Virus record (IMG/VR): IMGVR_UViG_3300045988_173400
Location: 1 to 17,806 of that record
Strand: one strand, 5' to 3'
From: a virus
Length of the DNA: 17,806 nt
Below are positions 1 through 16,726 of this stretch, one piece after another (the first letter of the stretch is position 1; each line of letters starts with the position of its first letter). A program made the translations under genes and the position numbers. Under the pieces are notes generated by a model. The model had not been told where the DNA came from. It was given only the letters and a program-made list of their open reading frames with translations, and did no database searches.

Positions 1-55
1 TCACCGGGGGAGAGGCCCTCGGGATGGCTCGAAAGGATCGAAAAAATGAGCTACA
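1..55. repeat. Left inverted terminal repeat (55 bp, perfect)
   Basis: The reverse complement of 17752..17806 is identical to 1..55 (tcaccgggggagaggccctcgggatggctcgaaaggatcgaaaaaatgagctaca). Identity ends at position 56 (c versus t). Confidence 0.95.
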
Positions 56-1494: not shown

Positions 1495-1846
1495 GAGGGT
1501 CCATATGACGCAGATTCGCCTCGCGCAGGCGCTGGAGGAACTCGCCGATCTGGTCGGCGAGGCGATCGACGGGCCGATCTGGGCCTGCTGGACGGGTGGC
1601 CGCACCGGCTGGCTCATGATCGACGACGGCCTCGACTCGCGGATCGCCGCTTCGGTCGACTACCGGGATCGTCTCATGACGCTGAACCTCCCGCCCGGGC
1701 AAGCCGTCGGGTCGAGCGCCTGCCTGCGCGGCTGGCTGGGCGACTGGCTGGCCGACGCCGGGCTCGCCTGGTGTGTCGGCTGCGACGACCTGGGTGACCG
1801 CGTCCTGATCGACGTGGCTCGCGACTATAGGCTGGTGTGTAAGTGA
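1487..1846 (+). CDS. Hypothetical protein, 119 aa
   Basis: The ATG follows a GGGAGGG SD with a 5-nt spacer and overlaps the upstream gene by 8 nt. I recognise no family. Confidence 0.55.
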   Translation: MARRVHMTQIRLAQALEELADLVGEAIDGPIWACWTGGRTGWLMIDDGLDSRIAASVDYRDRLMTLNLPPGQAVGSSACLRGWLGDWLADAGLAWCVGCDDLGDRVLIDVARDYRLVCK

Positions 1847-2157
1847 CGCCGATTCCGGATGACCCTGACCGCCCATGGGTTCCTGTCCACGATATTCTGC
1901 GGCGGCTCGGCGCCGAGCGGCACCGCTCCCGCGAGGAGGCGATCGACTGGCTGCTTCGGGTGCCGCTGGAGGGCGAGTTGACGGATCTGCCGGCGTCGTG
2001 GCGTCGGCTGGTGGCTGAGCGGTGTGCTTTCTGGCTGGAGTCGTCCGGGTCGTGGTGGTCGGCGTCGCCGGAGGTGATCGCCGAGGAGATCGCTACTGCG
2101 CGCCGGGAGGCTGCGGCGGCGGGTGCCGCGCCCGAGCAGCTGGCGCTGGACTTGTAA
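1843..2157 (+). CDS. Hypothetical protein, 104 aa, Trp-rich
   Basis: The GTG start overlaps the upstream stop (GTGA). There is no internal Met. The gene is followed by the convergent terminator. The SD is weak. Confidence 0.5.
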   Translation: MTPIPDDPDRPWVPVHDILRRLGAERHRSREEAIDWLLRVPLEGELTDLPASWRRLVAERCAFWLESSGSWWSASPEVIAEEIATARREAAAAGAAPEQLALDL

Positions 2158-2170
2158 AGGATGTTTCACG

Positions 2171-2205
2171 AGAAACCCCCGAGAGTAAATCTCTCGGGGG
2201 TTTCT
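2171..2205. terminator. Bidirectional hairpin terminator between the convergent arms
   Basis: A 15-bp perfect stem (agaaacccccgagag / ctctcgggggtttct) has a 5-nt loop. It lies 14 nt after the plus-strand stop at 2157 and 2 nt after the minus-strand stop at 2207. A T-run follows on the plus strand. Confidence 0.85.
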
Positions 2206-2206
2206 T

Positions 2207-2500
2207 TCACTTGGTGTTGGCGGCTGCGAGGCCGACGCCGAGGAGGCCGGCGATGGCGGGGGCGATGAGGGCGGCAGTCTCGCCGGTGACCCAGCCTGCG
2301 GCGACGCCGAGGGGAATGAGTCCGGTGAGGGCGCGGTAGGCCCATTTGCGCCAGGGGAGCCACCGGTCGGTGCCGGTCGTGTCGACGATGTCGCCGGCGG
2401 CGGCGGGGGTGCCGTCGGCGACGGCGTGTTTGGCGGCCTGGAATGCTGCGAGGGTGCCGGTGTCGGTGACGCCGGTGTCGAGATGCTTGGGGGTGCTCAT
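2207..2500 (-). CDS. Membrane protein, 97 aa, two C-terminal TM helices (holin candidate)
   Basis: The ATG at 2500 overlaps the upstream stop (TAATG), with GGAGGA just upstream. Two hydrophobic segments are present (YRALTGLIPLGVAAGWV and AALIAPAIAGLLGVGLAAA). It is the last gene of the lysis cluster. Confidence 0.6.
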   Translation of the reverse strand: MSTPKHLDTGVTDTGTLAAFQAAKHAVADGTPAAAGDIVDTTGTDRWLPWRKWAYRALTGLIPLGVAAGWVTGETAALIAPAIAGLLGVGLAAANTK

Positions 2501-2616
2501 TATCCTCCGTAGATGTATCTGTGGCAGTCGAGGTGGTAGTGGACGACGTCGGGATCGTCGGTGATACAGATGAGCGGGATGGGATCGCCACACCCCGCAC
2601 ACCTGCAATTAGGCAT
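2500..2616 (-). CDS. Cys/His-rich mini-protein, 38 aa (42 aa if started at 2628)
   Basis: The sequence is MPNCRCAGCGDPIPLICITDDPDVVHYHLDCHRYIYGG. My hand count gives GC3 of about 74% in this frame against about 44% in the alternative frame (the N-terminal extension of track ORF 2207..2608). It overlaps both neighbours (ATGCCTAA and TAATG). Confidence 0.5.
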   Translation of the reverse strand: MPNCRCAGCGDPIPLICITDDPDVVHYHLDCHRYIYGG

Positions 2617-3346
2617 TCTTTGGGCCATTTTTGTCCAGTTTGTTGATGATTTCTTCGAGTGCGTGGTGGCTGGCGGCGGGATATCCGAAGCCATAGCCGG
2701 GCACTTCCAGGAATCCTCGCAACTGTTCGACGGTGGCCGTCAATTTGTTGACGGTCTCCTGCAGGTCTCCGAGGGAATTCTGGGTCGCCTGCGGGTAGCC
2801 GAAGCTCTGCTCGGGCACTTTGAGGTTGCTGTATATCCAGTCAAGCTTGTTAGCCTGGTCGGGGGTCAAATCGTCCTCCTCGCTATCATCCTCTATGAAT
2901 CGCCTCACGGCTATGATGCTCGCAGACCCGGTGAGGCTCGGGTCGGAGAGTCGATGGAAGCGGGGCCCGCGGCCAGGGCCGCCGTGCCCCCACGTGTACC
3001 CGCCGCCGGCGTAGAGCTCGACGTGGGAGATGCGCCCGGCGAAGGGGCCGGTCGCCCACCCCATGCAAATGACGTCGGCGGGCCGGAGCGCGTCGAGGTC
3101 GAGGTCGCGCCACGTGTGCGTGTAGGCGACGGAGCGCCCCTGGACGGCGATGTTGAAGCTGCGCTCCCCCAGTCGGATGCCGGCGCACTGCAGGTAGGCC
3201 TGTGCTATAGTGGAGCTACAGTCGCCCCAGCCGTAGCGCTCAGGATCTTTGCGCCGCCAGTCGTTCGTGTAGCCGAAGGCGTTCTCGTGCTTGGCCATCC
3301 ATGCTACGATGGCGGCCCTAGTCGTCGCTGCTGTGATTTTTGTCAC
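2609..3346 (-). CDS. Endolysin: N-terminal NlpC/P60-type cysteine peptidase plus an unfamiliar repeat C-terminus, 245 aa
   Basis: It has the GWGDCSS catalytic-Cys context and a downstream ISHVELYAGG His motif. The domain is a paralogue of the C-terminal domain of the tail lysin. GTG start. It is flanked by small membrane proteins. Confidence 0.8.
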   Translation of the reverse strand: MTKITAATTRAAIVAWMAKHENAFGYTNDWRRKDPERYGWGDCSSTIAQAYLQCAGIRLGERSFNIAVQGRSVAYTHTWRDLDLDALRPADVICMGWATGPFAGRISHVELYAGGGYTWGHGGPGRGPRFHRLSDPSLTGSASIIAVRRFIEDDSEEDDLTPDQANKLDWIYSNLKVPEQSFGYPQATQNSLGDLQETVNKLTATVEQLRGFLEVPGYGFGYPAASHHALEEIINKLDKNGPKNA

Positions 3347-3572
3347 ATCCCCTCAGTGTCTCCTCCACTTTCCCGAGCCTGGCCTCGACGTCGGCCAGGC
3401 GTTCGAGGATCCCCGGGGACGCGGGCACGCCGGGGCGCGCCGCCTCCCCCATGAGATCGTCCAGAAAATGAGAGATTCGTCTCAGATTCGGCATGATTTT
3501 CCACACCACCCCCGCAAGGGCGATGATACCACCGAGCCCGAGTCCCGTCAATCCGTCGACGAAACCGTCCAT
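3318..3572 (-). CDS. Small membrane protein, 84 aa, one N-terminal TM helix plus a coiled-coil tail (holin or lysis-regulator candidate)
   Basis: This is an internal ATG of track ORF 3318..3812, 1 nt after the ATPase stop, with a GGGGG SD 6 nt upstream. The TM segment is GLTGLGLGGIIALAGVVW. It overlaps the endolysin start by 29 nt. Confidence 0.55.
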   Translation of the reverse strand: MDGFVDGLTGLGLGGIIALAGVVWKIMPNLRRISHFLDDLMGEAARPGVPASPGILERLADVEARLGKVEETLRGCDKNHSSDD

Positions 3573-3573
3573 A

Positions 3574-4581
3574 CTACACCCCCTTGAAGGTCTGGATAAA
3601 GCAATTTCGGGTCTGCGGCTTGTCAAAATAGAGCTCTCCACGATTGTACATGCGCCTGGCTGATGCCAGGAACGAGTCGCGCGGAGAGCAGTACATCGTG
3701 CTCTCGGTGACGAGCTTGACCTCGCTTGTGATGCGGAGTTGCTGTTTGGGGAGTTTTTCTTGGCAGTACCATCCGGACTGGCGTGGGTCGATCCACAGGG
3801 AGAACTCACCAAGGTCGGTGACGACGGTGCACGCGTAGTCCGAGTAGTGCGGTTTCCGGCCGATGAGGACGCCGTTGTTGTCGACGAAGCGGGATTTCAT
3901 CATGTAGTCTGCGTTGTCGCCGCCGACGGACGATAGGAATTTCCCGAATTTCGTTTTGGCGACCTGGCTGGCGAAGACAGCGTCGTCGGAGGTGTGGACG
4001 GCGATGAACCCGTCGTGATATGTTTCGAACTCGCTCGATGGTATAATGCCGTACTTGATGAAGTAGGGGTTGGTGATCGAGGCGGCGTTGGCGAGGAAGA
4101 GCGCCTGGACGCGATCGTCCCAGCGGTCGATCGTCGAATAGAAGCCCTCGAAGATGTCGGCTTCTTTCGGCAGGTACCGCGTGAGGCCTTCTTCGAGGAT
4201 GAATTCGTCGAAAATAAGCGTTCCTACCTCGCGGAAGCTCATGGACTTGGCTTGTCTGGCTTGGGTAAGGGCGGTGCATCTGCCGACGAGGGCGCCGGTT
4301 TTGGTGCCGTCGTCGACCCAGAGGCTGTTTTGGCGCACGGTGAAGTCATGGTCGGGGAATCTGTCGGCGATGTCGGCCATGAATGTCTGGAAGGCATGCT
4401 TTTCGCCCTTGTGGCGCCGGAGATAGACGAACTGAGACCCTTTGTCGATAAATCGGCGGAGCGCTATCTTTTTGGCGCCGTAGGTTTTCCCAGTGCCGCG
4501 GGCGCCCGTGACAATGGTCCACGGTGCATTGTAGGAGAGGATAGGGCCGAAATTATAGTAATTGAGAACTTGTTTAGTCAT
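3574..4581 (-). CDS. DNA encapsidation (packaging) ATPase, phi29 gp16-like, 335 aa
   Basis: The Walker A motif is GARGTGKTYGAKK and the Walker B-like motif is LIFDEFI. The N-terminal pattern LSYNAPWTIVTGARGTGKTY...RFIDKGSQFVYLRRHK parallels phi29 gp16 as I remember it (LSYDRILNFVIGARGIGKSY...RFIKYGEQFIYVRRYK). Confidence 0.92.
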   Translation of the reverse strand: MTKQVLNYYNFGPILSYNAPWTIVTGARGTGKTYGAKKIALRRFIDKGSQFVYLRRHKGEKHAFQTFMADIADRFPDHDFTVRQNSLWVDDGTKTGALVGRCTALTQARQAKSMSFREVGTLIFDEFILEEGLTRYLPKEADIFEGFYSTIDRWDDRVQALFLANAASITNPYFIKYGIIPSSEFETYHDGFIAVHTSDDAVFASQVAKTKFGKFLSSVGGDNADYMMKSRFVDNNGVLIGRKPHYSDYACTVVTDLGEFSLWIDPRQSGWYCQEKLPKQQLRITSEVKLVTESTMYCSPRDSFLASARRMYNRGELYFDKPQTRNCFIQTFKGV

Positions 4582-5935
4582 TGAGGTACCTCTTGACGCA
4601 CCACCCTATCCCTCGGGTGTCCCTGATGAATTTCGACAGCGAGTTTTTGTGTGGCCCGGGCACTTCGCCGTGGAGCCCGCCGCCATGGCCCCACGTGAGG
4701 TCGCCGCCGGCATACATCTCGACGTGGTCGACGCCGACGCGCCCGGATCCCCAGTCATAGAAGACGAGATCGCCAGGCTTCATGAGCGCAAGTTGTTGCG
4801 CGGAGATGGATTTCGCCGTGTTCCAGTTGATAACGAAGGATCCGTGGCCGTTGGCGCTCTGGGCGACAGTATTGCCGCCGATGTCGATGCCGCAGACGTC
4901 GAGGTAGGCGCGCCGGCAGGTCGACGAGCAGTCGCCGACGCCGGACCGGTCAGGGTCGAGCCGGCCGGCGCCGTTCGAGTAGCGGAACTTGTTTTCCCTC
5001 GACGCCATCCACCACACAAGTTTCTGGCGGGTCTCCGAGGTGCCGGGGGCGAGCTGGCCGCCGCCGCCGCCGGTGCCGGGGCCGCCATTCTGTCCGCCGG
5101 GCGTCGTGTCGGTCGGGGGCGGGGTGCCGGCGCCGCCGGGCCCCGCGATGTACTGTCCCTGACCATTGGGTGCGCACTGGACGATTTTGCCGTCGGCCAT
5201 GTGTGCGATAGCGACGTTGCCGACGGCCTCTATCCTAGAAAGCGTCCCGGCAGTGGAGCCTTGCTGCTGGGGCGCGTTGGTGTTGCCGCCGGGGGTGCCG
5301 CCGGAGCCGTCGCCCTGTGTCGGGCCGCCGGGCGCCGCCGGACCGGGTTCGACGCCGTCGACGCCCGAGCTGTCCATGTTTTTGATGATGGTGTATGCTG
5401 TATTGTATCGGTTGCGGTATTTGCCGAGAACTGGTTCGGACAGGAGCGCCGCATGCCACCGGTCGAGCGTGGCGCCCCCGATCTGGTTCGCTATCCGGAG
5501 GGCTCTTTTCGGCGACTGGTGGTAGGCGACGAAGAACATGATCATCGCCTGTGTGTGTCGGTCTCTGTCGATGCCGCACCGGCCGGCGACCTGCACGTAG
5601 GCTTCTAGATCCTCCGCCATTTGCCTTTGCTGTACTTTGTAGGCGGCACGCAGTACGGGCTTGACTTGACCGTCCCAGTAGTTGGGGAGGTAGTACGTGG
5701 CCCAGTTAATGGAGTTGGCGTTGACGAGCGACTGCAGCTGGGCCGGGAGTTTGGCGAACTCTGACGGCATTTCCTGTTTGATACGGTTGAGTAGCCCGTA
5801 GGCGCGGGGGCCGAACCACTGGCCTATCCCGATCGTGATCGGGTCCACGTGGTAGATGCCGTCGTAGCGCATGCCGGACTCCACCGTGCCGATCGCCTTG
5901 ATGGCGACGGCCTTCGCTTTAGCGTCCCACGCCAC
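4574..5935 (-). CDS. Tail-associated peptidoglycan hydrolase (phi29 gp13 analogue): N-terminal lysozyme-like domain, Gly/Pro linker, C-terminal NlpC/P60 peptidase, 453 aa
   Basis: The N-terminus carries GTVESG...IGIGQW, a phage tail-lysozyme-like motif. Residues 191-299 form a Gly/Pro-rich linker. The C-terminus carries GVGDCSS ... DHVEMYAGG. The GTG start has a GGAGA SD 5 nt upstream. Its position after the fibre genes matches phi29. Confidence 0.8.
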   Translation of the reverse strand: MAWDAKAKAVAIKAIGTVESGMRYDGIYHVDPITIGIGQWFGPRAYGLLNRIKQEMPSEFAKLPAQLQSLVNANSINWATYYLPNYWDGQVKPVLRAAYKVQQRQMAEDLEAYVQVAGRCGIDRDRHTQAMIMFFVAYHQSPKRALRIANQIGGATLDRWHAALLSEPVLGKYRNRYNTAYTIIKNMDSSGVDGVEPGPAAPGGPTQGDGSGGTPGGNTNAPQQQGSTAGTLSRIEAVGNVAIAHMADGKIVQCAPNGQGQYIAGPGGAGTPPPTDTTPGGQNGGPGTGGGGGQLAPGTSETRQKLVWWMASRENKFRYSNGAGRLDPDRSGVGDCSSTCRRAYLDVCGIDIGGNTVAQSANGHGSFVINWNTAKSISAQQLALMKPGDLVFYDWGSGRVGVDHVEMYAGGDLTWGHGGGLHGEVPGPHKNSLSKFIRDTRGIGWCVKRYLND

Positions 5936-5946
5936 GAGAGTCTCCG

Positions 5947-5958
5947 TTTCACGTGAAA
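5947..5958. promoter_or_regulatory. Perfect palindrome TTTCACGTGAAA, copy 1 (intergenic)
   Basis: This exact 12-mer sits between the fibre-gene terminator hairpin and the SD of the tail-lysin gene. The same 12-mer occurs at 13609..13620 and 15320..15331. Confidence 0.6.
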
Positions 5959-5995
5959 ACCGCCGCCCACGAGATGCGAACCCGTGAGCGGCGGT
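5959..5995 (-). terminator. Hairpin terminator after the fibre gene (minus strand)
   Basis: The stem pairs accgccgc-c-cacg with cgtg-a-gcggcggt (8 bp plus 4 bp around one mismatch) and has an 11-nt loop. On the minus strand it is followed by TTTT, which merges into the palindrome. Confidence 0.5.
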
Positions 5996-6004
5996 GTCTA
6001 ATAA

Positions 6005-7234
6005 CTACAGAGTACTCCATGCGGCCGAGATGTTCAAGTTCCCGCTCCATCCCTTCCACGTCTGCAGGTGTTGGTTGGGGTGGATCTGGAACGGGATGTC
6101 GTCGGTGCCGGAGGCGCCCCCGCGGGCGTTTCCGTTGACGGTGGCGCGGGGCGCCGCCCACTCGGGGATCATGCCGAGGTCGGCGCCGGTCGCGATCGAC
6201 TGGCCGGTGATGATTCCGGAGAGCGAGACGAGGCCGCCGGACAGGCGCAGCGTGAGCGGCGTGTCCGAATGGGAGGCGCCACCGGAGAGGCCGATCCTGT
6301 AGTTTTGCGATACAGGGATCGGTTCGTTGCCGTATTGGAGGTAGTTGCCGGCAAGTGTGGCGAATCGTATGTCTCCGGTAGAGTTGAGGTGGATTTGGCC
6401 CTCGGTGAAGTACTTCGCATATCCGAGACACCAATATTCGGTGCCGACATATTCGGCGCCGTAGTTGCCGCAGACCTCCTGCATAGCGGACAGGCAGTTC
6501 GCGAGGCCGTTCTTCGATTTCGTTAGGATGTGGAGGTTGCTCCACGCCCACACGGCACTAAAGACAACAATTCGGGCGTTTTTGAATGCTCTTTTGGCGT
6601 CGGAGATGCAGGTGACGAGCCCGTTGTAGATGTCGATTTCCTGCATCGCGTCGTTGCCGCAATCTGCGATGATGACGTATTTTACGTTGTCGTTCGAGAA
6701 CGATCCGTCGGCGATGGCGCGATTCATCTGCACCTGGAAATTGTCGGCGCCCTGTGCTATGCCCGTGCCGCCCTTGGCGAAGTTTTTCTCCGTGATCCCC
6801 ATGGCGCGGCACATGAGTGTCGGCCATTTGCCTTCGACAACGTTGGAGGTGCCGACGATGACTGCGCACAGCTCGGGCGCCGCCGCATTTTTCAGTATGT
6901 ACCTGCTGTCGGACTCCTCCTTCGTGTAGCGGTTGGCAACCTTCAGCCCGAGGTCGTCGTAGGCGGACTTCACTTGGCGGGTCGTCTCCATCTTGGCGCG
7001 ACCTTCGGCGTCGGCGATCTTCTGGTCGATTTGCTCGACGACCTTGTGGTCGCCGGCGACGGTATCCTCCGCTTTTTTGATACGGATCTCCATCGAATTG
7101 AATTTTGTGGTGTCCTCGGCTGCGCGCAGGTCGATTTTGCGCATGTCGCCGTTGTAGTCGCCCCGCCAGGTGGGCTTATCATTGTCGAGGAACTGTGACA
7201 GCCCGAGGGCCTCGGTCTTGTCAGTAGAGCTCAT
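6005..7234 (-). CDS. Tail fibre/appendage protein with a central SGNH/GDSL-type hydrolase domain, 409 aa
   Basis: The N-terminus is fibre-like (LGLSQFLDNDKPTWRGDYNGDMRKID) and is followed by a coiled coil. SGNH-like blocks are VIVGTSNV (I), KGGTG (II), ADCGNDA (III) and IHLNSTG (V). A Gly/Ser-rich beta-type C-terminus follows. The start overlaps the upstream stop (TAATG). Confidence 0.7.
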   Translation of the reverse strand: MSSTDKTEALGLSQFLDNDKPTWRGDYNGDMRKIDLRAAEDTTKFNSMEIRIKKAEDTVAGDHKVVEQIDQKIADAEGRAKMETTRQVKSAYDDLGLKVANRYTKEESDSRYILKNAAAPELCAVIVGTSNVVEGKWPTLMCRAMGITEKNFAKGGTGIAQGADNFQVQMNRAIADGSFSNDNVKYVIIADCGNDAMQEIDIYNGLVTCISDAKRAFKNARIVVFSAVWAWSNLHILTKSKNGLANCLSAMQEVCGNYGAEYVGTEYWCLGYAKYFTEGQIHLNSTGDIRFATLAGNYLQYGNEPIPVSQNYRIGLSGGASHSDTPLTLRLSGGLVSLSGIITGQSIATGADLGMIPEWAAPRATVNGNARGGASGTDDIPFQIHPNQHLQTWKGWSGNLNISAAWSTL

Positions 7235-7737
7235 TAAATGTCCTTTCGTACTGCGTGTGGCGTTGTGGCCTCGGGATCGAGGTCCCAGCCGCGGGCTTTC
7301 CAGCCCATCTCGTCGAGCTGTTTGGCGGTGGCACCGATATTGTCGGCCTCGATAGCGAATCTGGCGGCGGTGCGGAGATTGCTGTACATGCTGGCGAGCG
7401 CCTCGGAGAGGGTTTTGGTGGTGACGCCGTCGACGGGGTCGGTGACGAAGACCTTCTCGCCGCCGCGGGCGGCGAGTTTCCTGTAGAGTTCGTCGATAGC
7501 GTATTGTATTTTACGATCAGTCTCGGCGCGTAGCTGTGCGACCGTCTTGTTGACGTTGGCCTCAAGCTCATTGCATATTTTTATGCACTTGTTGATGGCG
7601 TCGACCAGGTTTTGACAGTTCCGGGCGACACGTTCGAGCTTTTCGACGTAGGTGATGCCGTCTCGGAATGTGAACGGAGTCACATTCGTCAGCGGCGTAT
7701 CCTGGATTGTGAAAAACGGTACATTTTCTACCGGCAT
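7234..7737 (-). CDS. Putative tail appendage or fibre-associated coiled-coil protein, 167 aa
   Basis: This is an internal ATG of track ORF 7234..7788, with a GGGGGAGGT SD 6 nt upstream, 5 nt after the collar stop. It has a central heptad-like segment (EKLERVARNCQNLVDAINKCIKICNELEANVNKTVAQL). The function is inferred from position only. Confidence 0.45.
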   Translation of the reverse strand: MPVENVPFFTIQDTPLTNVTPFTFRDGITYVEKLERVARNCQNLVDAINKCIKICNELEANVNKTVAQLRAETDRKIQYAIDELYRKLAARGGEKVFVTDPVDGVTTKTLSEALASMYSNLRTAARFAIEADNIGATAKQLDEMGWKARGWDLDPEATTPHAVRKDI

Positions 7738-7741
7738 GTTG

Positions 7742-8455
7742 CTACCTCCCCCACCAAGGATACCACAGGCCGAAAGGATACGTCGCATCCGACCCGACGT
7801 GTGCGTCTCCGGACGAGGCGATCCCCATGAAAAGGGGCTCTAGCTCGGCGACGACCATTTGGTCAACGTTGATCATCGCCTGGCGGTACTCCGTGATAAG
7901 CGCGGCGCCGGAGGTCATCCTGCCCCGCTGGCCCGACCTGGCGTGCGACTCCGCCATGTCCGAGTGAGAGGCGTCGGAGGTTGCTTTTTGGCCATTTTTG
8001 CCGGCAGTGCGCCCCTCCGACGTCGTGCCGGTGGTGGCGTAGTCGCCCTCTTTGTAGATGGGGCTGCCGGGGTAGGCGTGCTCGCGGCCGGCCGACGTCG
8101 ACTCGCCGGACGACGTGGACTCGCTGGATGACGTAGATTTCTGGTTACCGCTGCCGGACTGGTTGGCGTCGGTCCAGGTCGTCATGTCCACTGCGGAGAG
8201 CGGGTCGTACTGCAGCCTGGTGCTCTCGTAGAGCTGGTTGTAGTAGGGCATGACGAGGCGCAGTTTCGCGGCGACCTGTTGCCGGAAAATGTCGATCGTT
8301 TCGAAGCCTATCTCACGGTAGCAGTAGACCTCGTACAGGGTCTGGTTAAGCTGTGCCCGGTAGGCCTCGTCGAAGATCGGGTATGTCTCTACGCCCCAGT
8401 CGCCGCCGGTGACGTCGACGACGTCCCGGAGGAGCATGGTGAAATCCGCGGCCAT
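7742..8455 (-). CDS. Lower collar protein, phi29 gp11-like, 237 aa
   Basis: This is an internal ATG of track ORF 7742..8527 that overlaps the portal stop (TAATG). The motif YREIGFETIDIFRQQVAAKLRLVMPYYNQLYES, followed by a Ser/Thr/Gly-rich insert, matches my recollection of lower collar proteins. It lies directly after the portal. Confidence 0.8.
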   Translation of the reverse strand: MAADFTMLLRDVVDVTGGDWGVETYPIFDEAYRAQLNQTLYEVYCYREIGFETIDIFRQQVAAKLRLVMPYYNQLYESTRLQYDPLSAVDMTTWTDANQSGSGNQKSTSSSESTSSGESTSAGREHAYPGSPIYKEGDYATTGTTSEGRTAGKNGQKATSDASHSDMAESHARSGQRGRMTSGAALITEYRQAMINVDQMVVAELEPLFMGIASSGDAHVGSDATYPFGLWYPWWGR

Positions 8456-9375
8456 TAGACCTCCATCTCGGACGCGACGTCGAGGTTGCCGACGAAACCC
8501 TCGACCATGGCGTCGGTGAGGCGCCACGAGACGGAGACGTCGAGCCCGTATTTCCTGTTGATTTTCTCGCAGGCCTGCTCGCGCTGGGAGAGCGCCATGC
8601 CGCGGAAGGCCATCGTCTGCCCGTCCAGTGAGTTGGCCTCGTCGGCGACCATGCGTTCCTTTTTGCCCGGAGGCGCAGCTTGGATGCCGAGCATCATCAT
8701 CGCGTCATTCCAGATGGCCCTGCGTGCCGCGAGGTTCTCGGTGACAACCTGAGGGTGCACTTGGTTCGGGATGGTGACGACTTTCTCGGCGATGCTCTCG
8801 CCCCCATTGGTTTTGATCGTGTAGATGACCGGCTGCCCCTCGACGAGCTGGCGTTGGAAATTCTGGGCCGTCAGCATCTCCGACGGCTCCACCGCGAGAA
8901 TGAGGGGATTCCGCGTGTTGGCGAGGTTGATATCGATCGTGCGGTCGATCTCCGACAGGCGTGCCGCATAGGCGGTGACGACGTCATTGTCCGGCTCGTG
9001 CATGTCATTGGCCCAGATAGGCACGCAGTCACGGGATTTGACGTGTCGATTGATCTTAGAGTTTGCGTTGAGGTAGTAGGATAGTGGACGGTTGTAGATG
9101 TCGCGGTCACCGCTCGGAGTGCCCGCCAGCGCCGTGAAAATCCGGAAATGCGGATCGAGGGAGAAAACCACCAAGCCGTTCTTGTGGAGGGTCATCTCCA
9201 CATACCGCTCGTCGACGGTGTTCGGCAGCCCCTCCCATTTGAATCTCGCCATGGCGAGCATCCGGAGGGTGCGCCAGTAGATGTTGAAATTCATGCCCGT
9301 GCGGGCCATCGCTTCGTTTCTTTTGAAACGCCCGCGCGCGGTCACCATATCGTAGACGTCATCGGCGCCTTTCAC
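8455..9375 (-). CDS. Portal (head-tail connector), phi29 gp10-like, 306 aa
   Basis: FKWEGLPNTVDERYVEMTLHKNGLVVF, RDIYNRP and IWNDAMMMLGI parallel phi29 gp10 [34 protein letters not shown] and VWNEMMTFLGI. I chose the GTG at 9375 as the start: it overlaps the upstream stop (GTGA) and has an AGGTGG SD 7 nt upstream. The track ORF extends to 9681 inside the upstream gene. Confidence 0.9.
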   Translation of the reverse strand: MKGADDVYDMVTARGRFKRNEAMARTGMNFNIYWRTLRMLAMARFKWEGLPNTVDERYVEMTLHKNGLVVFSLDPHFRIFTALAGTPSGDRDIYNRPLSYYLNANSKINRHVKSRDCVPIWANDMHEPDNDVVTAYAARLSEIDRTIDINLANTRNPLILAVEPSEMLTAQNFQRQLVEGQPVIYTIKTNGGESIAEKVVTIPNQVHPQVVTENLAARRAIWNDAMMMLGIQAAPPGKKERMVADEANSLDGQTMAFRGMALSQREQACEKINRKYGLDVSVSWRLTDAMVEGFVGNLDVASEMEV

Positions 9376-11591
9376 AGTTTCACCACCTCGTATGGACCGT
9401 TTTCGTAGATTTTCATGGTCGGTATTTCCTCGGGGTCCCCCCAGACGGTCGTGCCCGACTCGAAAATGCCTCGGATCGTATCGACGAACATTTGCGGACA
9501 CCTTGGTGCCTCGATATGCACGTCCGCGAGCTTCCAGTACGTGAAATGCGTCATGAGGTCGAGCCGGTAGGAGGCCATGTCGACATAGCGATTGCAGGCG
9601 TACCCGTACCTTGCGAAAAATTGGGCGACGCGATGGGCGGCGCCGGAGTTGAGGCCGCGGATCCGCAGCCAGACCGCCCACCCGGACGTGGCCAGCATGA
9701 AAGCGTCACCGCCGATCTGGCCCGACGTCGACGGCTGGGTGAGCTGCGTGTCCTGGACGCGTGCATTGATGCCGGCGATGGTATTGGCGTAGTCGCCCTT
9801 GGCGACCATGTCGGCGTAGGCTCGGTTCGTGTCGCGGTTATAGGCGGCGAGATGGTTTTGGGCTTGGTTAATCTGGGACGCGAGTTGATTGGATATACCG
9901 GTGGAGGCCGCCGCCGTCGAGTTGGCGAGTTCGGCCTGTGCGTTCCGGGCAGTGGTGTTGATATTGTTCGACGCTGCTGCGGTCGCGATCGAGGCGCCCC
10001 CCTTCAGGGCGCCCCCGATGTTGCCGCTCAGGAGGTTTCCGACGACGCCGAGGCCTGTGTTAGCCATGGAGAGCTTCGTCTGGTCCCATGCGGCGTCGTT
10101 GGTGATCGCCGTCGACTGGGACCTGGCGGCGTTCGATAGGTCGGTCTGGGCGGTACGGGCTGCGTTGCCGAGATTGGTGGTGGTCGTCGACGTTGCCATC
10201 GCCTGGCTCGCTTGGTCGTAGGCGAGCTGGTTGCCGGCGAGCGCTTTTTGCTGCCCCCACTCGGCGGACTGCCGAGAAAACGCGATCGAGTGCGCCTGGC
10301 TGGCCAGCGCGGCGATTCCGGCGTTATTGGTGATCGAGAATGTTGGGAAATTCGTGAAATAGACACTACAGTCCAGATAACTGCCGTCCAGCGCCCCCTT
10401 CTGCGCTGGGCCATCCTTGAGATAATCTTTCACCCAGCACACGACGCGGGGCGACGGCGGCGCGAAATGCCGCAGGCAGGCGATCGTCGTGACGCCGCCC
10501 TTCGGCAGGTACTCGGGGCGGAGCGTCATGGACTGCCCGGCATAGTTGGTGAGCTCTATCCACACGAAAGGCGAGGTGAAGAGCTTCGAGTAGTTTTGCT
10601 GCCAGTCGGGGTACGCAAGGGCCCCTGCCACCGACAGCATGCCGTCGGGGAAAAACGTTTGCTGACGCCCCCACATGACGGCGCCAGCATGCTGATCGCC
10701 CTGTTTGCGGGCCCTGACGATCGCGACGTTATTGAGATCCATCCCGGGGATGAAATGGCTGTCGGGAAGCTCGCACTCGTGGCTGTAGACGACGTCGAGG
10801 AACGGGTGCTGCCCTCCGCCATCGCCCCACGGCATGATCTGGATCGATTGGATGCCCTGCGCCACCCACGGATAGAGGCTGCACGACAGCGCGAAAACCT
10901 CGAAAGCGGCAATCGACCGGAAAATGATGATGTCGGCGCCGTTCGGCAGCCCCTCAAACCCACTGCCTTTAGCGGTGTCGAGGTGGGGATTTTGCGTATT
11001 GCCGGGGTTTCCCGTGAAATCGGTGCCGGCGATGACCATGACGCCGCAGTCCTGCAGCGTGGCGAGGTTGTACCTCTCCGTCCACTGCACCATGTAGTCG
11101 GCGCCGAGGTCGAGCCCCTCGGTCTCACGGAGGACGTCATGGTTGCGGCCACGCCACGTGGCGGCCACCGGCAGGTGTCCGCGCTCGACGTAGGCAGTGC
11201 GTAGCCGCACGTTCCAGCAGTAGGTTGTCCATACGTCGAGCTGCAGGGCGAGCTCGATCGTGTCGGGCGCTACCTGGACGATGTCGTTGATGAAATAATA
11301 GTAGACCCTGACGTCGTCGTCTTTCTCGTGGAGGTTGGAGAGCTTCGGGTCGCGCACGCGGACGTAGTTGAATTGCATCGCCTGCGGCCAGGGAATATCG
11401 AGCCGCACTGTCTGCTGTTGCGTGAGGGGGGTGAATTTGTTGATCGTGAGCGATTTCCCACCCTTGCGGCGCAGGTAGGCGTCGATCTGCTTAAAATTTT
11501 GCCACTTGACGATGTTTCGATACTGGGCGTCGTAGTCGACGCGGGCGAGCAGCACCTCGCTGCCGGGCCCCCAGCCTGCCCACTGCGGCAT
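9372..11591 (-). CDS. Tail knob / distal tube protein, phi29 gp9-like, 739 aa
   Basis: Its size and position (after the MCP, before the portal) match gp9. The N-terminal pattern (TVRLDIPW...FNYVRV...VYYYFINDI) resembles gp9. It has an internal Ala/Asn/Gln/Thr-rich region with a Gly-rich hydrophobic loop. I prefer the ATG at 11591 (GGAGGT SD 8 nt upstream) over the track GTG at 11600, which abuts the SD. Confidence 0.75.
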   Translation of the reverse strand: MPQWAGWGPGSEVLLARVDYDAQYRNIVKWQNFKQIDAYLRRKGGKSLTINKFTPLTQQQTVRLDIPWPQAMQFNYVRVRDPKLSNLHEKDDDVRVYYYFINDIVQVAPDTIELALQLDVWTTYCWNVRLRTAYVERGHLPVAATWRGRNHDVLRETEGLDLGADYMVQWTERYNLATLQDCGVMVIAGTDFTGNPGNTQNPHLDTAKGSGFEGLPNGADIIIFRSIAAFEVFALSCSLYPWVAQGIQSIQIMPWGDGGGQHPFLDVVYSHECELPDSHFIPGMDLNNVAIVRARKQGDQHAGAVMWGRQQTFFPDGMLSVAGALAYPDWQQNYSKLFTSPFVWIELTNYAGQSMTLRPEYLPKGGVTTIACLRHFAPPSPRVVCWVKDYLKDGPAQKGALDGSYLDCSVYFTNFPTFSITNNAGIAALASQAHSIAFSRQSAEWGQQKALAGNQLAYDQASQAMATSTTTTNLGNAARTAQTDLSNAARSQSTAITNDAAWDQTKLSMANTGLGVVGNLLSGNIGGALKGGASIATAAASNNINTTARNAQAELANSTAAASTGISNQLASQINQAQNHLAAYNRDTNRAYADMVAKGDYANTIAGINARVQDTQLTQPSTSGQIGGDAFMLATSGWAVWLRIRGLNSGAAHRVAQFFARYGYACNRYVDMASYRLDLMTHFTYWKLADVHIEAPRCPQMFVDTIRGIFESGTTVWGDPEEIPTMKIYENGPYEVVKL

Positions 11592-11614
11592 GATCGTCAC
11601 CTCCTATAGGAACA

Positions 11615-11643
11615 GCCCCGGGGCGGATCGAAAACCCCGGGGC
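11615..11643 (-). terminator. Hairpin after the major capsid gene (attenuator or 3'-stabiliser candidate)
   Basis: A 9-bp GC stem (gccccgggg / ccccggggc) with an 11-nt loop lies in the 110-bp gap between the MCP stop and the tail-knob start. No clear U-tract follows on the minus strand. Confidence 0.45.
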
Positions 11644-11710
11644 CGTCGGCGAGAACTCGCTCCAACACCGGTTGCTCAGGCCGGCGCCTCACTCCGCATT
11701 GTCGCCACTT

Positions 11711-13351
11711 CTAGACGACGTTTACAGTATACTCTCCGTAACTTTTGCCATCAAGTCCGGCGATTGTGAGCTTCACCACGAAGCTGGCTTCGCTCTTGGC
11801 GATCGAGATCGCCGACGCGAAGACGTTGACGCCGACCGGGTAGACCTGGCTCTCGGCGCCGTCCTCCGCCAGGAGGGCCTTGCGGGAGCGGGAGACCGTG
11901 TATTCCTTCGTCGCCTCGGTGAATTTCGCGACGCGACGCCCGAGGACGTCGATGCCCTTCAGCTCGCTCTTGGTCGCCGGCCACTCCGGGAAGGCGGGGC
12001 CGCCGATACCGGTGAACTCGGCCTCCGACTTGGCGCCGTCCGCCTCCGCGGTGACGGTGATCGGGCCGAGCTCGCGCGGGCCGATCGAGAGGACGCCGGC
12101 CTGGGAGACCTGTGTGCGGGAGTCGGTGCCGCGCACCGTCCAGTTGATGTCCGGGTCGGTGCCCCCGCCAGTGCAGGTGGCTTCCAGCTGGTAGTTGCCG
12201 CCGCGCACCATATCCTGCCCCTGGACCTCTTTCGCGCCCTCGCCATACGCCTTGATGGCGGTGATAGCCGTGACAGGGTCTTTGGCGATGACGCGCTCGG
12301 TTTCGCCTCCGGTCCAGAACATGATCGCCGGCACGAAGCGCGAGCAAGAGATGATTTCGTGGTGGTGCAGGAAAATGTTTTCCTGGCTCGGTTCGGTCGG
12401 GTCCTGGAAATTGAGGTTTTCCAGAAGGGTGTCGGCGACGACGAAGAAGTCGCTGTCGACGAGGATCGCCTGACATCCGCCCTGCGGGAAATACTCAGCG
12501 GGCACCTCGATGATGTGGTAGGGCACCTCGGCGTAGGGGACGTTGAAAAGCGCCGCCAGCCCCTCGACGTCCAGGGCCGCATTCGCCTCGGGCGTGATGA
12601 ACATCACCAGGTTGTCGGGCTTGGCGGCGATCGGGAAACGTGCTGCGTTGTAGTAGGGGCTCCGGAATTTCAGATTCCCCGCCATGGCGCGCATCTTGCG
12701 CAGTGCCAGCCTGACGTCGCGATCGGTGACGTCCTGTGCCGAAATGTCCGGAATGTGTGCGTGATAGAAGCCGCCGCGGCGCTCATACTCGGTGAAAAGT
12801 CTCGACATGAGAAGGAATTCGTCCCATTTGTCCGACTCGCTCGGTGCGGCCATGATGTCCGAGATGAGCCCGGACATGTCGCCCTCGCCGAGAAAGGCAC
12901 TCTTGATGACGGCGCGCTCCACGGAGACCGGGTAGACGTCCATGCGGTTTTTCTCGTGGAAGCTGACGTCGATCGGCACCCTGTGCGTGCCGAAAGCCAT
13001 CTTTTCGCCGAAACTGCGGTTCGGGTCGTACGCCTTGGCGCGGATGAGCCCCGTCTGGTACTCTTCGATGCCATTGCCGTATTCGATGAGCCCCCGCTTG
13101 AAGCGTGCGAGAGGGTTCGTCCACGAGTTGTGACGGGCGACGATCGTGCCGATCTGCGTCATCAGCGCCGTGTAGATGGGATTCCACAGCTGGCGGTGCT
13201 GGTCCAGGTAGCGGACCGTCGTCTCCACGCCGGCCTGCGTCGGCGACGGAATCCGCGCCTTGTAGCCGATGTTGGCACCGTTGATGGCGACCTGCAGCAG
13301 CTCGCCGTTGGAGACTCCCGGCTTCAGGGACGGGATGTTGGGTACGGGCAT
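11711..13351 (-). CDS. Major capsid protein, phi29 gp8-like, with two C-terminal Ig-like domains, 546 aa
   Basis: Several segments parallel phi29 gp8 as I recall it: [20 protein letters not shown] versus [30 protein letters not shown] versus [25 protein letters not shown] versus AVLVDKDWFMVYDNL, and [11 protein letters not shown] versus SVSRFANAVAF. A GGAGGA SD lies 7 nt upstream. Confidence 0.93.
   Translation of the reverse strand: [546 protein letters not shown]
11726..11754 (-). promoter_or_regulatory. Promoter-like element inside the 3' end of the MCP gene
   Basis: On the minus strand the layout is TTGATG, a 17-nt spacer, then TATACT. It shares the exact -10 hexamer with the other two promoter candidates. 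It lies upstream of the 11615..11643 hairpin, so its function is uncertain. Confidence 0.3.
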
Positions 13352-13354
13352 GTG

Positions 13355-13645
13355 TTAGTCCTCCGCGATGATGTCTTCGAGCGTTAGGGATTCAGGGTCG
13401 ATGTCGGCGTCCGACGTCTCGGGCGCCTCGTCGATCGCGGAGTGCTCGATGATCGCGCGCAGCTCCGTGCACTGAGCGAGCGCCTCCTCGGCGATCTGCC
13501 GTACCTCGGAGATCATCTCCGTCAGGTCGGCGTCGATGGCGTCGGACTCCGCCTTCACGACGTCCGACTCATCCATTTCCTCAGGGGCCGGCGCCTCGTC
13601 CGGCTCGGTTTCACGTGAAACATCGTCTTCAGGCGTGTCCGCCAT
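13355..13645 (-). CDS. Scaffolding protein candidate (phi29 gp7 analogue), very acidic, 96 aa
   Basis: This is an internal ATG of track ORF 13355..13732 with a GGAGGA SD 5 nt upstream. The protein is Asp/Glu-rich and helical-looking, ends 3 nt before the MCP start, and matches gp7 in size and position. Confidence 0.65.
   Translation of the reverse strand: MADTPEDDVSRETEPDEAPAPEEMDESDVVKAESDAIDADLTEMISEVRQIAEEALAQCTELRAIIEHSAIDEAPETSDADIDPESLTLEDIIAED
13609..13620. promoter_or_regulatory. Perfect palindrome TTTCACGTGAAA, copy 2 (inside the scaffold gene)
   Basis: This is the exact 12-mer, or the 14-bp palindrome gtttcacgtgaaac at 13608..13621. It lies 25-36 nt into the scaffold CDS and encodes VSRET. 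Confidence 0.6.
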
Positions 13646-13787
13646 GCATGTCCTCCGATCGGTAGTGGGGGATGCCGCCCCCCGGCGCCGGACGGCACCC
13701 AGCCACGGGATCAGGGCTGCGGCCGGTCTCACCCGGGGCTCTCCGCGCGCCCATCGCCGGCGCGCACGGGAGGGGCATCATGTGCGC

Positions 13788-13817
13788 AGTATATCACACC
13801 GCCGACATCCTTGACCA
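13788..13817 (-). promoter_or_regulatory. Candidate late promoter with extended -10, overlapping the DNA polymerase stop codon
   Basis: On the minus strand the layout is TGGTCA, an 18-nt spacer, then TG-a-TATACT. It lies upstream of a 148-bp non-coding gap that precedes the scaffold and capsid genes. The spacing and -10 hexamer match the left-arm promoter. Confidence 0.55.
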
Positions 13818-15464
13818 GTCCTTGAGCGTGTAGCTCTCGCGGACGTAGGCGGCACCGCCGGGCACCATCCGGCAGACGCGATTCTCTAGGACGGCATAGG
13901 GACGGACGTCCTCGTAGCGGACGAGCGGCGCCAGGTCGCCGGAGAGACCCGCCATGACGGCCGTCGAACCGGCGCCGGAGTCCAGGTAGTATTGCTTGGG
14001 TCCGACGAATTTCGCCCTACCGAACGTGTCGCGCCGGGACCACTGCCCCAACCTCCCGCCGACGTCGGCGCCGCGAGGCGGCTCGCCTCCGAGAAGGATG
14101 ACCGAGTCCGTGTCATAGTAGAGGAGCCTGTCGTAGTTCGCATTAGCGACGTGCACGAGCTCCCTGCGCCCATAGGCCGTCACGAAAGCGGCCAGGGCGG
14201 GGTAGACGCTGTTGACGTAGCGTTGACTGATTTTAAAGGGCTTTAGGATGCCGTCGGTGTGGACGAGGCTCGGGCCGTCGTCTTCACGCGAGTCGACGAG
14301 CTCGTAGCCGAGACCCTGCTCGACCATGAGCGTTCGCGTCGCGAATTTACCGTACACCGTGTTGAGGGCCTGTTTGGCGACGAGGCGCATCGCCGGATCC
14401 GAGTGGGACTTCATCTCATAGAGCGGCTCAATATACGGCGCCAGGTCCCCCACCGAGCTCTCGTATTCGAAACACGAATTCCAGCACCACACATCGAAAT
14501 CATAATATGTTGTCAGACACTCATAGTCGACAGACGTGATCCAACACGACGTAGAAACATCATCATCCCACACCTTCGTGCCACACTCGGTCTTCTGAAA
14601 AAAGCACGGCACACCCCACCCCAGACGCCCCTCGCAGACGACGTTCGCGATCCAGAGACCGTCCATATCCTCCGGCGCCCCCTCGTGATAGTAGGGGCGC
14701 CCGACCGGCAAACGCTCGCCCGCCATGATCGACGGATAGAGAGAGTTGACGTCCCACGAGGATCCAGCACCCGTCTCCGTGAAAGGCTCGGCCTCCGGGC
14801 CGAGATTGCACAGGCCGGGCAGATAGGCGGCGCGGAGCATCTCCGACTCGGGGACGCCCGTCGGCGCCGGGTAGAGCCCGTCGAAATCCGCCACCGCCTC
14901 GCGGAGCCGCGCGAAAGCCCGCGACGCCTGCGTCATTTTCCGCGACGACCAGGCGTCGTCGAAAAGCACGGCGGCGGCGAGCACGTCGAGGTAAACGCGC
15001 GACCACGGGACGTCCAGGGCGAGATCCGTCGCCCACTGGGGATGGAGAGTCTCCGCCAGAGCGTCGAAATCCAGCGGCAGGAGAGCCTCGACGCCGCGGA
15101 TCGACACCGACCGGCCCGGCGCCACGGGGGCATTGAGCGAGAAAAATTGGCCGTCGCCCGTGTAGAGGCCGGAGAGACGGTCGACGGGGCGCCGGTAGTC
15201 GGGGGACCAGGTGATGCCGCGCTCGATGTAGTCGGCGACGATGCAGGGGCCGACCAGGTCCATATCCCACGTGTAGGCGACCTGGTAGGCAGCGAGGTCA
15301 GCCTCGGCGTCGGCGAACGTTTCACGTGAAACGTAGTTTTCGCCGTCGAGACCCATGAGGTGGACAGAGGCTATCGAGGCACGCTCGCCGTCGTAGGCGG
15401 TCTCCACCCACAGGACGCAGACGTCAGATCGCTCCAATCGTTTGCTCGATTGCTTTGAAGACAT
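13794..15464 (-). CDS. Family-B, protein-primed DNA polymerase, 556 aa
   Basis: Polymerase motifs are A (DVNSLYPS), B (KQALNTVYGKFA), C (YYDTDSV) and KxY (GPKQYY). The start is an internal ATG of track ORF 13794..15794 with a GGAGGGAGG SD 7 nt upstream. It overlaps the 3' end of the terminal protein gene by 41 nt. Confidence 0.93.
   Translation of the reverse strand: MSSKQSSKRLERSDVCVLWVETAYDGERASIASVHLMGLDGENYVSRETFADAEADLAAYQVAYTWDMDLVGPCIVADYIERGITWSPDYRRPVDRLSGLYTGDGQFFSLNAPVAPGRSVSIRGVEALLPLDFDALAETLHPQWATDLALDVPWSRVYLDVLAAAVLFDDAWSSRKMTQASRAFARLREAVADFDGLYPAPTGVPESEMLRAAYLPGLCNLGPEAEPFTETGAGSSWDVNSLYPSIMAGERLPVGRPYYHEGAPEDMDGLWIANVVCEGRLGWGVPCFFQKTECGTKVWDDDVSTSCWITSVDYECLTTYYDFDVWCWNSCFEYESSVGDLAPYIEPLYEMKSHSDPAMRLVAKQALNTVYGKFATRTLMVEQGLGYELVDSREDDGPSLVHTDGILKPFKISQRYVNSVYPALAAFVTAYGRRELVHVANANYDRLLYYDTDSVILLGGEPPRGADVGGRLGQWSRRDTFGRAKFVGPKQYYLDSGAGSTAVMAGLSGDLAPLVRYEDVRPYAVLENRVCRMVPGGAAYVRESYTLKDWSRMSAV
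15320..15331. promoter_or_regulatory. Perfect palindrome TTTCACGTGAAA, copy 3 (inside the polymerase gene)
   Basis: This is the exact 12-mer, or the 16-bp palindrome cgtttcacgtgaaacg at 15318..15333. It lies in the N-terminal part of the polymerase CDS and again encodes VSRET. Confidence 0.6.
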
Positions 15465-16266
15465 TTTTCGGCCTCCCTCCGTTTCGGCCCGTGCCGGGGT
15501 TGCCCTCTCCCATTTGCACCCGGGAGAAATCCAATTTTGTGAGCTTGTAGGCGTTGCGGAGGTTCTGAGCGAGGGTGGAGTCGCGCCACAGCACCATAAA
15601 GGCCGCCATGCCCTTACCTTTCCGAGCGATCTTCGCCTCCATCTGCTTGCGGATGCGCTCACCCTCCTCGCCAAGCTCGGATGCCATCGACACGAAAGAT
15701 CGCCACGCCTTGTCCTGCTGGTATTTGCGACCCTCCGCCGACAGGAGAAAATCCAAGCGCGCCATGTGCTTGTCGAAAGCCTTTTTCGACGCATACTGTT
15801 TGACGCCGCGGTTGCGGGAGGCGATCGGGTCGGAATCGACGCCCGGGACCCCGATGTAGCGGGGCGCTCGACCTTTACGGGTTTCCTTCTCGGTGAACAT
15901 CTGCTGGAGCGACATGCCGCTCGACGGGTCGACGTAGCGGACGAACCTGCGCCGCTGACGGGCCGCTCGCTCGTTCAGGCGGCGCTGGCGATTCCGGAGG
16001 ATATCCATATCCGTCTTCGAGATGACGCCCCCCTTCTGGGTGCCGTAGAATTGGACGCCACGCGACGTGAACACCTGCATCCGGTTAATAAAGCTCTTGA
16101 GCTCCTTCACCGACATGCCGCGGATGTCGTCCAGCGACGACGGGTCCGGGTGATACTCGGTGCCGCGCAGATCCACACCCTGCCTCTTCAAGCGGCTGAG
16201 CTTCCGCATCGCCCGGCGCCGAGCCAGCGCCGCATCCCTCTGCCACGAAGCCTTCGTTTTAGCCAT
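15424..16266 (-). CDS. Terminal protein (phi29 gp3 analogue), basic, 280 aa
   Basis: It lies immediately upstream of, and overlaps, the polymerase gene. The N-terminal half resembles phi29 TP as I recall it: LKRQGVDLRGTEYHP versus KKKYGVDLTAEIDIP, and FINRMQVFTSRGVQFYGTQKGGVISK versus WKEQASSFTNRANMRYQFEKNAYGVVASK. Confidence 0.8.
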   Translation of the reverse strand: MAKTKASWQRDAALARRRAMRKLSRLKRQGVDLRGTEYHPDPSSLDDIRGMSVKELKSFINRMQVFTSRGVQFYGTQKGGVISKTDMDILRNRQRRLNERAARQRRRFVRYVDPSSGMSLQQMFTEKETRKGRAPRYIGVPGVDSDPIASRNRGVKQYASKKAFDKHMARLDFLLSAEGRKYQQDKAWRSFVSMASELGEEGERIRKQMEAKIARKGKGMAAFMVLWRDSTLAQNLRNAYKLTKLDFSRVQMGEGNPGTGRNGGRPKNVFKAIEQTIGAI

Positions 16267-16284
16267 GATCCCATCCTAGCCGAA

Positions 16285-16308
16285 GCGGGGCGGCCGAAGC
16301 CGCCCCGC
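16285..16308 (-). terminator. GC hairpin between the SSB and terminal protein genes
   Basis: A 10-bp perfect stem (gcggggcggc / gccgccccgc) carries a cgaa loop. There is no U-tract, so it may be an I-shaped terminator or an RNA processing or stability element. Confidence 0.4.
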
Positions 16309-16322
16309 GCGAGTGATTCACG

Positions 16323-16715: not shown

Positions 16716-16726
16716 GAGCATTCTCC

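Follow-up and report, generated by a model that had tools for sequence, protein, structure and literature searches.

Chromosomal-type parS sequences on a complete phi29-like phage genome and their probable use through host ParB

parS sequences and their gene context

We analyzed a viral genome of 17,806 bp (IMG/VR record IMGVR_UViG_3300045988_173400, positions 1 to 17,806, hereafter the window) in which a short palindrome corresponding to parS, the centromere sequence of bacterial chromosomes, recurs within and between genes. The window is the linear genome of a phi29-like podovirus, and its perfect 55-bp terminal inverted repeats (left, 1..55; right, 17752-17806) show that it is complete; a long operon occupies the minus strand, and a short left arm (46-2157) is convergent with it. 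The 12-bp palindrome TTTCACGTGAAA is found exactly at 5947-5958, 13609-13620, and 15320-15331 and with one mismatch at 2164-2175 (TTTCACGAGAAA) and 11008-11019 (TTTCCCGTGAAA). A preliminary description, made from the letters of the window, had reported these five copies at the same coordinates, and our recount bears them out.

When the comparison is extended to 14 bp, the sites at 13608..13621 and 15319..15332 match GTTTCACGTGAAAC at all 14 positions, and those at 5946..5959 (GTTTCACGTGAAAA, with the 12-mer core exact) and 2163..2176 (GTTTCACGAGAAAC) match it at 13 of 14. The symmetry of the flanks, previously put at 14 to 16 bp, is confirmed for the two perfect sites (gGTTTCACGTGAAACa at 13607-13622 and cGTTTCACGTGAAACg at 15318-15333), the first of which also matches the 16-mer TGTTTCACGTGAAACA at 15 of 16 positions.

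The 13608 site covers codons 9-13 (VSRET) of a gene for an acidic 96-amino-acid (aa) scaffold-like protein (13355-13645), beginning 25 nt from the ATG at 13645, and a promoter-like site lies upstream at 13817-13788. The 15319 site falls within the gene for the protein-primed DNA polymerase, in its 5′ part, at about codons 45-49 (YVSRETF) and 133 nt from the start at 15464. The two remaining well-matched sites are intergenic. That at 5946 directly precedes the Shine-Dalgarno sequence and GTG start (GGAG/GTG) of a 453-aa NlpC/P60 tail lysin (4574-5935); on its other side stands an intrinsic terminator hairpin (5960..5995; −33.4 kcal/mol, z = −4.5) at the 3′ end of a gene for a 409-aa SGNH-like protein (6005-7234), and the T-rich arm of the parS site is the U-tract of this terminator. 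A bidirectional terminator hairpin (2171..2205; AGAAACCCCCGAGAG-loop-CTCTCGGGGGTTTCT, the 14-mers being repeated in inverted orientation) separates the lysis genes from the convergent genes of the left arm, and its left stem is overlapped by the 2163 site. The T-rich arms of both intergenic sites double as terminator U-tracts. The fifth, degenerate site (11007..11020; 12/14), inside the tail-knob gene, is probably nonfunctional. The gene context given earlier for the copies (between hairpin and tail-lysin start, 25 nt into the scaffold gene, within the polymerase gene, and at the convergent terminator) proved correct once the long operon was read on the minus strand.

The motif is far more frequent than base composition predicts. 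The shuffle count that the preliminary description had proposed gave five 12-mer matches, exact or with one mismatch, against 0.03 expected, a number reached in none of 200 dinucleotide shuffles. In a scan of all palindromic 8- and 10-mers over the whole genome, TTCACGTGAA was the sole outlier, at about 240-fold above the third-order Markov expectation. Repeated 12-mers of any kind were frequent in 300 shuffles because the genome is GC rich and of low complexity, but a palindromic 12-mer occurred even twice in only 15 of them. Half-sites are another matter: 1.4 are expected in total, and the three isolated ones that are left after removal of the full sites are not significant. Of the two half-sites described previously, the first lies at 170-176 rather than 171-177 and is not conserved; the second, at 418, exists and is conserved, yet it lies immediately upstream of a promoter-like sequence (435-464), which confounds it. 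This promoter-like site, on the plus strand, is the strongest sigma-70-like promoter of the genome (TTGACA-18-TATACT, an 11/12 match), and the GTTTCACATTTTCC element that precedes it and contains the half-site is kept in 6/6 relatives. The element may act with the promoter as an UP element, or it may be the tail of a terminator or a half-site for ParB.

By sequence, the 14-mer GTTTCACGTGAAAC is the canonical parS of chromosomes, at which the ParB/Spo0J dimer nucleates, and it is predicted to be bound here in the same way. It is the form listed for Mycobacterium smegmatis; the consensus TGTTNCACGTGAAACA is listed for Bacillus subtilis and Corynebacterium glutamicum, and near-identical forms for Caulobacter, Hyphomonas, and Burkholderia (PMC7022226, Table 1). 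parS is highly conserved across the vast majority of bacterial chromosomes (PMC7022226), and in the literature searched, nearly all papers that contain GTTTCACGTGAAAC deal with ParB or parS. The preliminary description had not recognized the motif as a known regulator box; it is in fact the best-known bacterial centromere (PMC7022226). The sites of the window share with chromosomal parS a 16-bp palindrome that fits TGTTNCACGTGAAACA around the core GTTTCACGTGAAAC, as well as selection as a DNA element instead of through an encoded peptide. They do not share its origin-proximal chromosomal location: the genome that bears them is viral and complete, with inverted repeats at its ends, and they are therefore parS sequences rather than a chromosomal centromere. 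Given the identity of the motif, host ParB is the probable binder. The previous proposal, that the sites are operators bound by a dimeric protein from phage or host, stands to the extent that they are nonrandom and that their palindromic form fits a dimer; an operator that times read-through is unsupported.

The genome has the same gene order as Actinomyces phage Av-1, whose polymerase is the best match among isolates at 27% identity. Outside the genes named above, its minus strand encodes a protein that binds single-stranded DNA (SSB; 16323-16715), a 280-aa protein in the terminal-protein position (15424-16266), the protein-primed family B polymerase itself (PolB; 13794-15464), a Phi29-type major capsid protein (MCP; 11711-13351), the tail knob (9372-11591), the connector (8455-9375), the lower collar (7742-8455), the gp16 packaging ATPase (3574-4581), an endolysin (2609-3298), and a holin (2207-2500). 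The longest polymerase open reading frame (ORF), of 666 aa, starts at 15794 and overlaps the upstream gene for the 280-aa protein (15424-15794). Relatives' gene calls and GC content at third codon positions indicate that the real start is the ATG at 15464, giving 556 aa and a 41-nt overlap with the putative terminal-protein gene. The terminal inverted repeats are far longer than the 6 bp of phi29, and the ends are presumably capped by terminal protein. Searches of 20 ORFs against Pfam and PHROGs gave no ParB, ParA, or recognizable DNA-binding regulator, with no match to ParB, helix-turn-helix (HTH), or ribbon-helix-helix (RHH) families at E ≤ 0.05, and about ten small early ORFs had no detectable family. 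The early ORFs of the left arm (46-2157) and the right end (16702-17761) are all orphans, without hits in Pfam or PHROGs and without a homologue in the sister clade or in the clade at ∼80% identity described below. Turnover is much faster in these early regions than in the remainder of the genome. No near relative turned up among deposited phages, a megablast search of INPHARED with the full window giving no match. An Rfam scan of the window found no packaging RNA (pRNA) or other RNA family, giving just subthreshold His_leader matches (2087-2268) on the terminator hairpin; in Av-1, a pRNA is annotated near the equivalent end.

Conservation of the sites and their distribution among relatives

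Relatives were gathered from IMG/VR and ENA/Logan at capsid identities of 86-97% and whole-genome DNA identities of 78-90%, one capsid cluster alone having 321 members. The search of related phages for the 14-mer that had been suggested in the preliminary description showed that the sites are positionally conserved: parS-type sites lie at the same four positions (2163, 5946, 13608, and 15319) in 14 relatives with 78-90% DNA identity. We then scored each site in a multiple alignment, in which the number of genomes aligned varies by site (15 at 13608 and 12 at 15319). Of the 15 genomes, 14 have an exact 13608 site; among all 14-bp windows it falls within the 0.4% that are best conserved, and the clade at ∼80% identity keeps it although its flanks have diverged there. 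The 15319 site is exact in 7 of 12 genomes and carries one mismatch in the other 5. The 5946 site is found in all close relatives, either exact (as the full 14-mer in L001, L004, and L007) or altered by a one-base change or indel, and the 2163 site is exact in L003, L005, and L011 and absent from the ∼80% identity clade (L024 and L025). Conservation of the 11007 site does not exceed background, with 83% of 14-bp windows at least as conserved, and this site is lost in L005.

Third codon positions distinguish selection on the DNA from selection on the protein. Across eight genes, the share of invariant third positions is only 21.7% overall and 5.7% for A/T-ending codons. The four parS codons of the scaffold gene (GTT-TCA-CGT-GAA) all end in A or T and are rare in this genome, which has >80% G+C at third positions, yet none of their third positions varies among 15 genomes. 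In the polymerase parS, two of four are invariant and the other two have changed once each. The N-terminal segment of the scaffold protein that holds VSRET is not conserved in the sister clade; when the N-termini of polymerase and scaffold were compared with that clade by tblastn in order to set codons at a homologous VSRET side by side, they could not be aligned, a result that is informative in itself. Invariant A/T third positions in an unconserved peptide mean that the DNA itself is kept. The four sites are under purifying selection as DNA, inside genes and against the codon bias. The preliminary description had suggested that a DNA or RNA motif is what is selected, and this holds at the DNA level (4/4 invariant versus 5.7%). 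Its argument from the shared reading frame of the two coding copies, both read as VSRET, is weak and we do not use it as evidence, since the third frame of the palindrome contains TGA, leaving two possible frames and a probability of 1/2 that they agree.

Sites were present in 7/7 members of the window's own clade, in 5/5 members of a sister clade, and in 1/68 others among the 80 IMG/VR loci nearest by gp16. The sister clade (loci L023, L029, L032-L036, and L187-L190) has genomes of ∼16 kb whose core proteins (capsid, connector, ATPase, and polymerase) are 39-46% identical to those of the window's clade. The proteins encoded at 2207-7234 are much closer, at 87% for the tail lysin, 80% for the 409-aa SGNH-like protein, 70% for the endolysin, and 63% for the holin. 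This similarity, far above that of the core genes, indicates that a module for host interaction and lysis has been exchanged and that the two clades probably have a host in common. In the high-GC branch, parS sites are confined to these two clades. Most of the sister-clade sites carry a single mismatch. One of them occupies the homologous intergenic spot ahead of the tail lysin, and others are found at nonhomologous positions. No early orphan protein is common to the parS-positive clades (the window's own, the ∼80% identity clade, and the sister clade). The sites thus track the host-interaction module and neither the core phylogeny nor a candidate phage regulator, which points to a host factor as the binder. 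We found no parS in the isolates Av-1, Tillums, Prophecy, PineapplePizza, and Reje or in the more distant relatives scanned; since the nearest actinobacterial phi29-like isolates lack the sites, the sites were gained independently.

We also scanned more widely for phi29-like genomes and for parS. The gp16 scan gave at least 584 confirmed phi29-like stretches among 2.9 million contigs. In a separate search of IMG/VR for the exact 16-mer parS TGTTTCACGTGAAACA, ∼30 among the first 120 matches listed were phi29-like, with GC contents of 32-54%. These include L054, L058, L059, L064, L065, L072, L081, L093, L096, L099, L101, L104, L107, L117, L122, L123, L127, L133, L146, L152, L153, L158, L160, and L169, among others. 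Many have two to six sites, often as tandem pairs 24-34 bp apart (6546/6580 in L058 and 5526/5552 in L065). Hungatella phage CH17P1 (OP172758; L179), a cultured phi29-like phage with a host in the Clostridia, has one perfect 16-bp parS at 8389-8404, intergenic between two late genes.

A proposed role for host ParB and the alternatives

With moderate confidence, we place the host among oral, nonsporulating Actinomycetaceae. A 1.8-kb contig of the sister clade was binned in a metagenome-assembled genome (MAG) of Pauljensenia (Actinomycetaceae), relatives come from Human Microbiome Project (HMP) samples and the human-metagenome third-party annotation (TPA) set, the GC content of the window is high (63%), and Av-1, the nearest isolate, infects Actinomyces. 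In the phage-host pairs considered, phi29-like actinophages are lower in GC than their hosts.

Taken together, these data make it likely, in our judgment, that a complete phi29-like genome carries chromosomal parS sequences for use through host ParB, resulting in partition-like inheritance in a host that is probably a member of the Actinomycetaceae. The phage most likely borrows the segregation protein of its host, as phi29 does in Bacillus. After injection, host ParB dimers would nucleate at the phage parS sites and, with CTP, close into clamps able to slide along the 17.8 kb of phage DNA. The terminal proteins, which are covalently attached, could prevent these clamps from slipping off the linear ends; in vitro, ParB-CTP accumulation requires closed DNA or capped ends (PMC7053999). 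The phage DNA would then become a ParB partition complex resembling a copy of the host origin region, which ParA and polar anchors could position and segregate, so that an unintegrated genome would be inherited by daughter cells and lytic growth delayed, as in a carrier state or pseudolysogeny. Because the probable host does not sporulate, we infer hitch-hiking on ParABS in a carrier state rather than spore entrapment.

Several points weigh against this reading. ParB binding at the phage sites is predicted from the identity of the motif, and sequence data do not separate partition, titration, and silencing as outcomes of such binding. Constraint on the sites is not absolute, as they drift between exact and one-mismatch forms among relatives and mostly have one mismatch in the sister clade, and the overlap of the two intergenic sites with terminator U-tracts may be part of the cause of their conservation. 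Searches of isolate-genome contigs with the capsid protein and with SSB found neither the phage nor a host and so gave no direct sign of a carrier state. The host assignment draws on one short MAG-binned sister contig, GC content, HMP origin, and the relationship to Av-1, and that this host has a ParB of standard specificity is presumed from how generally ParABS occurs among Actinobacteria (PMC7022226).

We consider it unlikely that the sites serve instead to titrate ParB, although the enrichment, conservation, and codon evidence would apply equally to that case. During replication, phage genomes would number in the hundreds, and at roughly four sites apiece they would exceed the few parS copies of the chromosome, draw ParB (and ParB-loaded SMC) away from the origin of the host, and upset its segregation or division in the phage's favor. 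The site density of the phage, one per ∼4.5 kb, compares with 3-21 sites per whole actinobacterial chromosome, and parB mutants of Actinobacteria give 10-44% anucleate cells (PMC7022226, Table 1). However, we found no precedent for such titration in the literature searched, phi29, the only studied case, points to genome segregation (PMC2731898), and a lytic phage would profit little from defects in segregation that show up one generation on.

A roadblock or silencer, in which a protein at the sites (host ParB or another dimer) times or suppresses the late and lysis genes, seems to us quite improbable. In its favor, three sites are at the 5′ ends of genes or just before a start (those in the scaffold and polymerase genes and that before the tail-lysin Shine-Dalgarno sequence), and the scaffold-gene site is downstream of the promoter-like sequence at 13817-13788. 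ParB represses genes beside intergenic parS in Pseudomonas aeruginosa, and the ParB proteins of P1 and F silence flanking genes (PMC7022226). But the sites have no constant position relative to promoters, those of the sister clade are elsewhere, and two sites of the window double as terminator U-tracts. In phi29, likewise, parS lies within genes 10, 12, 15, and 17 (four of five sites in transcribed genes) and beside a terminator, not at promoters, and repression acts via Spo0A boxes rather than parS (PMC2731898); in the window, Spo0A boxes are not enriched (TGTCGAA, three versus 2.06 expected). The more specific suggestion of the preliminary description, a roadblock or switch that times read-through from early into late genes, therefore finds no support, as the sites are inconsistently placed with respect to promoters and their positions differ between clades. 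Modest silencing by ParB is possible.

It is, in our estimate, very improbable that the sites serve as operators for a dimeric regulator encoded by the phage itself, with a target sequence that coincides with that of ParB. The small early ORFs without a family leave room for a novel DNA-binding protein despite the annotation. Nevertheless, it would be an extraordinary coincidence if such an operator matched the pan-bacterial consensus of parS over 14 bp, the parS-positive clades have the sites but no early orphan in common, and none of the proteins matched ParB, HTH, or RHH families at the threshold above. Finally, chance, shared ancestry alone, or a restriction-modification signal centered on CACGTG can be set aside as extremely improbable, for although CACGTG belongs to the type II restriction sites and common descent gives close relatives shared sequence, no shuffle reached the observed count, synonymous sites are conserved above the genome background, and CACGTG (10 copies in the genome, 7 of them without parS flanks) is neither avoided nor specially embedded.

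We thus favor partition-like inheritance through host ParB. Host-type parS may be recurrent on phi29-like phages, well beyond phi29 itself. A broader proposal, which we put forward tentatively and would not yet bet on, is that carrying host parS is a strategy that has evolved repeatedly and independently in protein-primed phi29-like phages of many hosts, nonsporulating ones included, and in which terminal proteins make the linear genome "closed" for ParB-CTP clamps and so give nominally virulent phages a plasmid-like carrier state driven by ParB.

If partition-like inheritance holds for the window, a "strictly lytic" oral phage could be inherited without integration, which would help to explain why such phages persist for long in people and why lytic phages are recovered from isolates in a carrier-like manner (PMC12768965). 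The phi29/Spo0J paradigm would then reach past spore formers, and there would be a natural test of ParB-CTP clamp retention on protein-capped linear DNA. Phage-borne parS might also serve as a sequence marker for a noncanonical lifestyle when therapy phages are chosen and, because the host must have a standard ParB, as a clue to host range.

Comparison with known systems

Chromosomal ParABS centromeres have the identical 14- to 16-bp palindrome, with sites in and between genes and several per replicon. The window differs in being a 17.8-kb linear viral genome without parA or parB, not near oriC, and with a site density about a thousandfold higher. In the ParB-parS system of P1, SopB of N15, and the parABS systems of mycobacteriophages (PMC7157519), an unintegrated phage genome is heritable through a ParB-centromere complex, as we infer here. 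Those phages, however, are temperate and have their own ParA and ParB and private centromeres, whereas the phage of the window has neither protein and uses the host consensus site. LexA, Spo0A, and CtrA boxes on phages (PMC9437464) offer a parallel of another kind, since embedded sites for host factors couple the behavior of the phage to the state of the host. These are promoter-associated transcription-factor sites, unlike the parS of the window, which is a segregation and loading site and is not associated with promoters.

The closest parallel is phi29 itself. Scanned in the same way, phi29 (NC_011048; L173) has four exact TGTTCCACGTGAAACA sites and one near site, and one parS, at 17243-17258, stands directly against the bidirectional terminator TD1. 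Work by Meijer et al. in 2005, as described in PMC2731898 and PMC9437464, reportedly showed that parS of phi29 (and of Nf) is bound by Spo0J, with spore entrapment as the outcome. The phage carries five parS sites and Spo0J, the ParB of B. subtilis, is involved in segregating its genome into the forespore (PMC2731898; PMC9437464); its lytic program is repressed via Spo0A boxes (PMC2731898; PMC9437464). In the literature searched, host parS on a phage was reported only for phi29 and Nf.

Both phi29 and the window are genomes of small podoviruses with a terminal protein, PolB, a Phi29-type capsid, and the gp16 ATPase, and the window has the full set of phi29-type genome features (PolB, terminal inverted repeats, MCP, connector, and gp16). 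Both have several host-consensus parS sites in genes and between them and no ParB of their own, and in both one parS lies at a convergent bidirectional terminator between the late and early operons (17243-17258 in phi29 and 2163-2176 in the window). They differ in that the window has GTTTCAC arms on both sides of its sites whereas phi29 has TGTTCCACGTGAAACA. The coupling to sporulation that marks phi29, through Spo0A boxes and a spore-forming host, is likewise not shared: Spo0A boxes are not enriched in the window, and its host, the family of which we deduce from the evidence above, is probably a high-GC nonsporulating actinobacterium and not Bacillus, so that spore entrapment is excluded as an outcome. 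By analogy, capture of ParB may be common to phi29 and the phage of the window. The parS sites of the window are the same kind of element as those of phi29, and what is new is the phylum of the host and a setting without sporulation.

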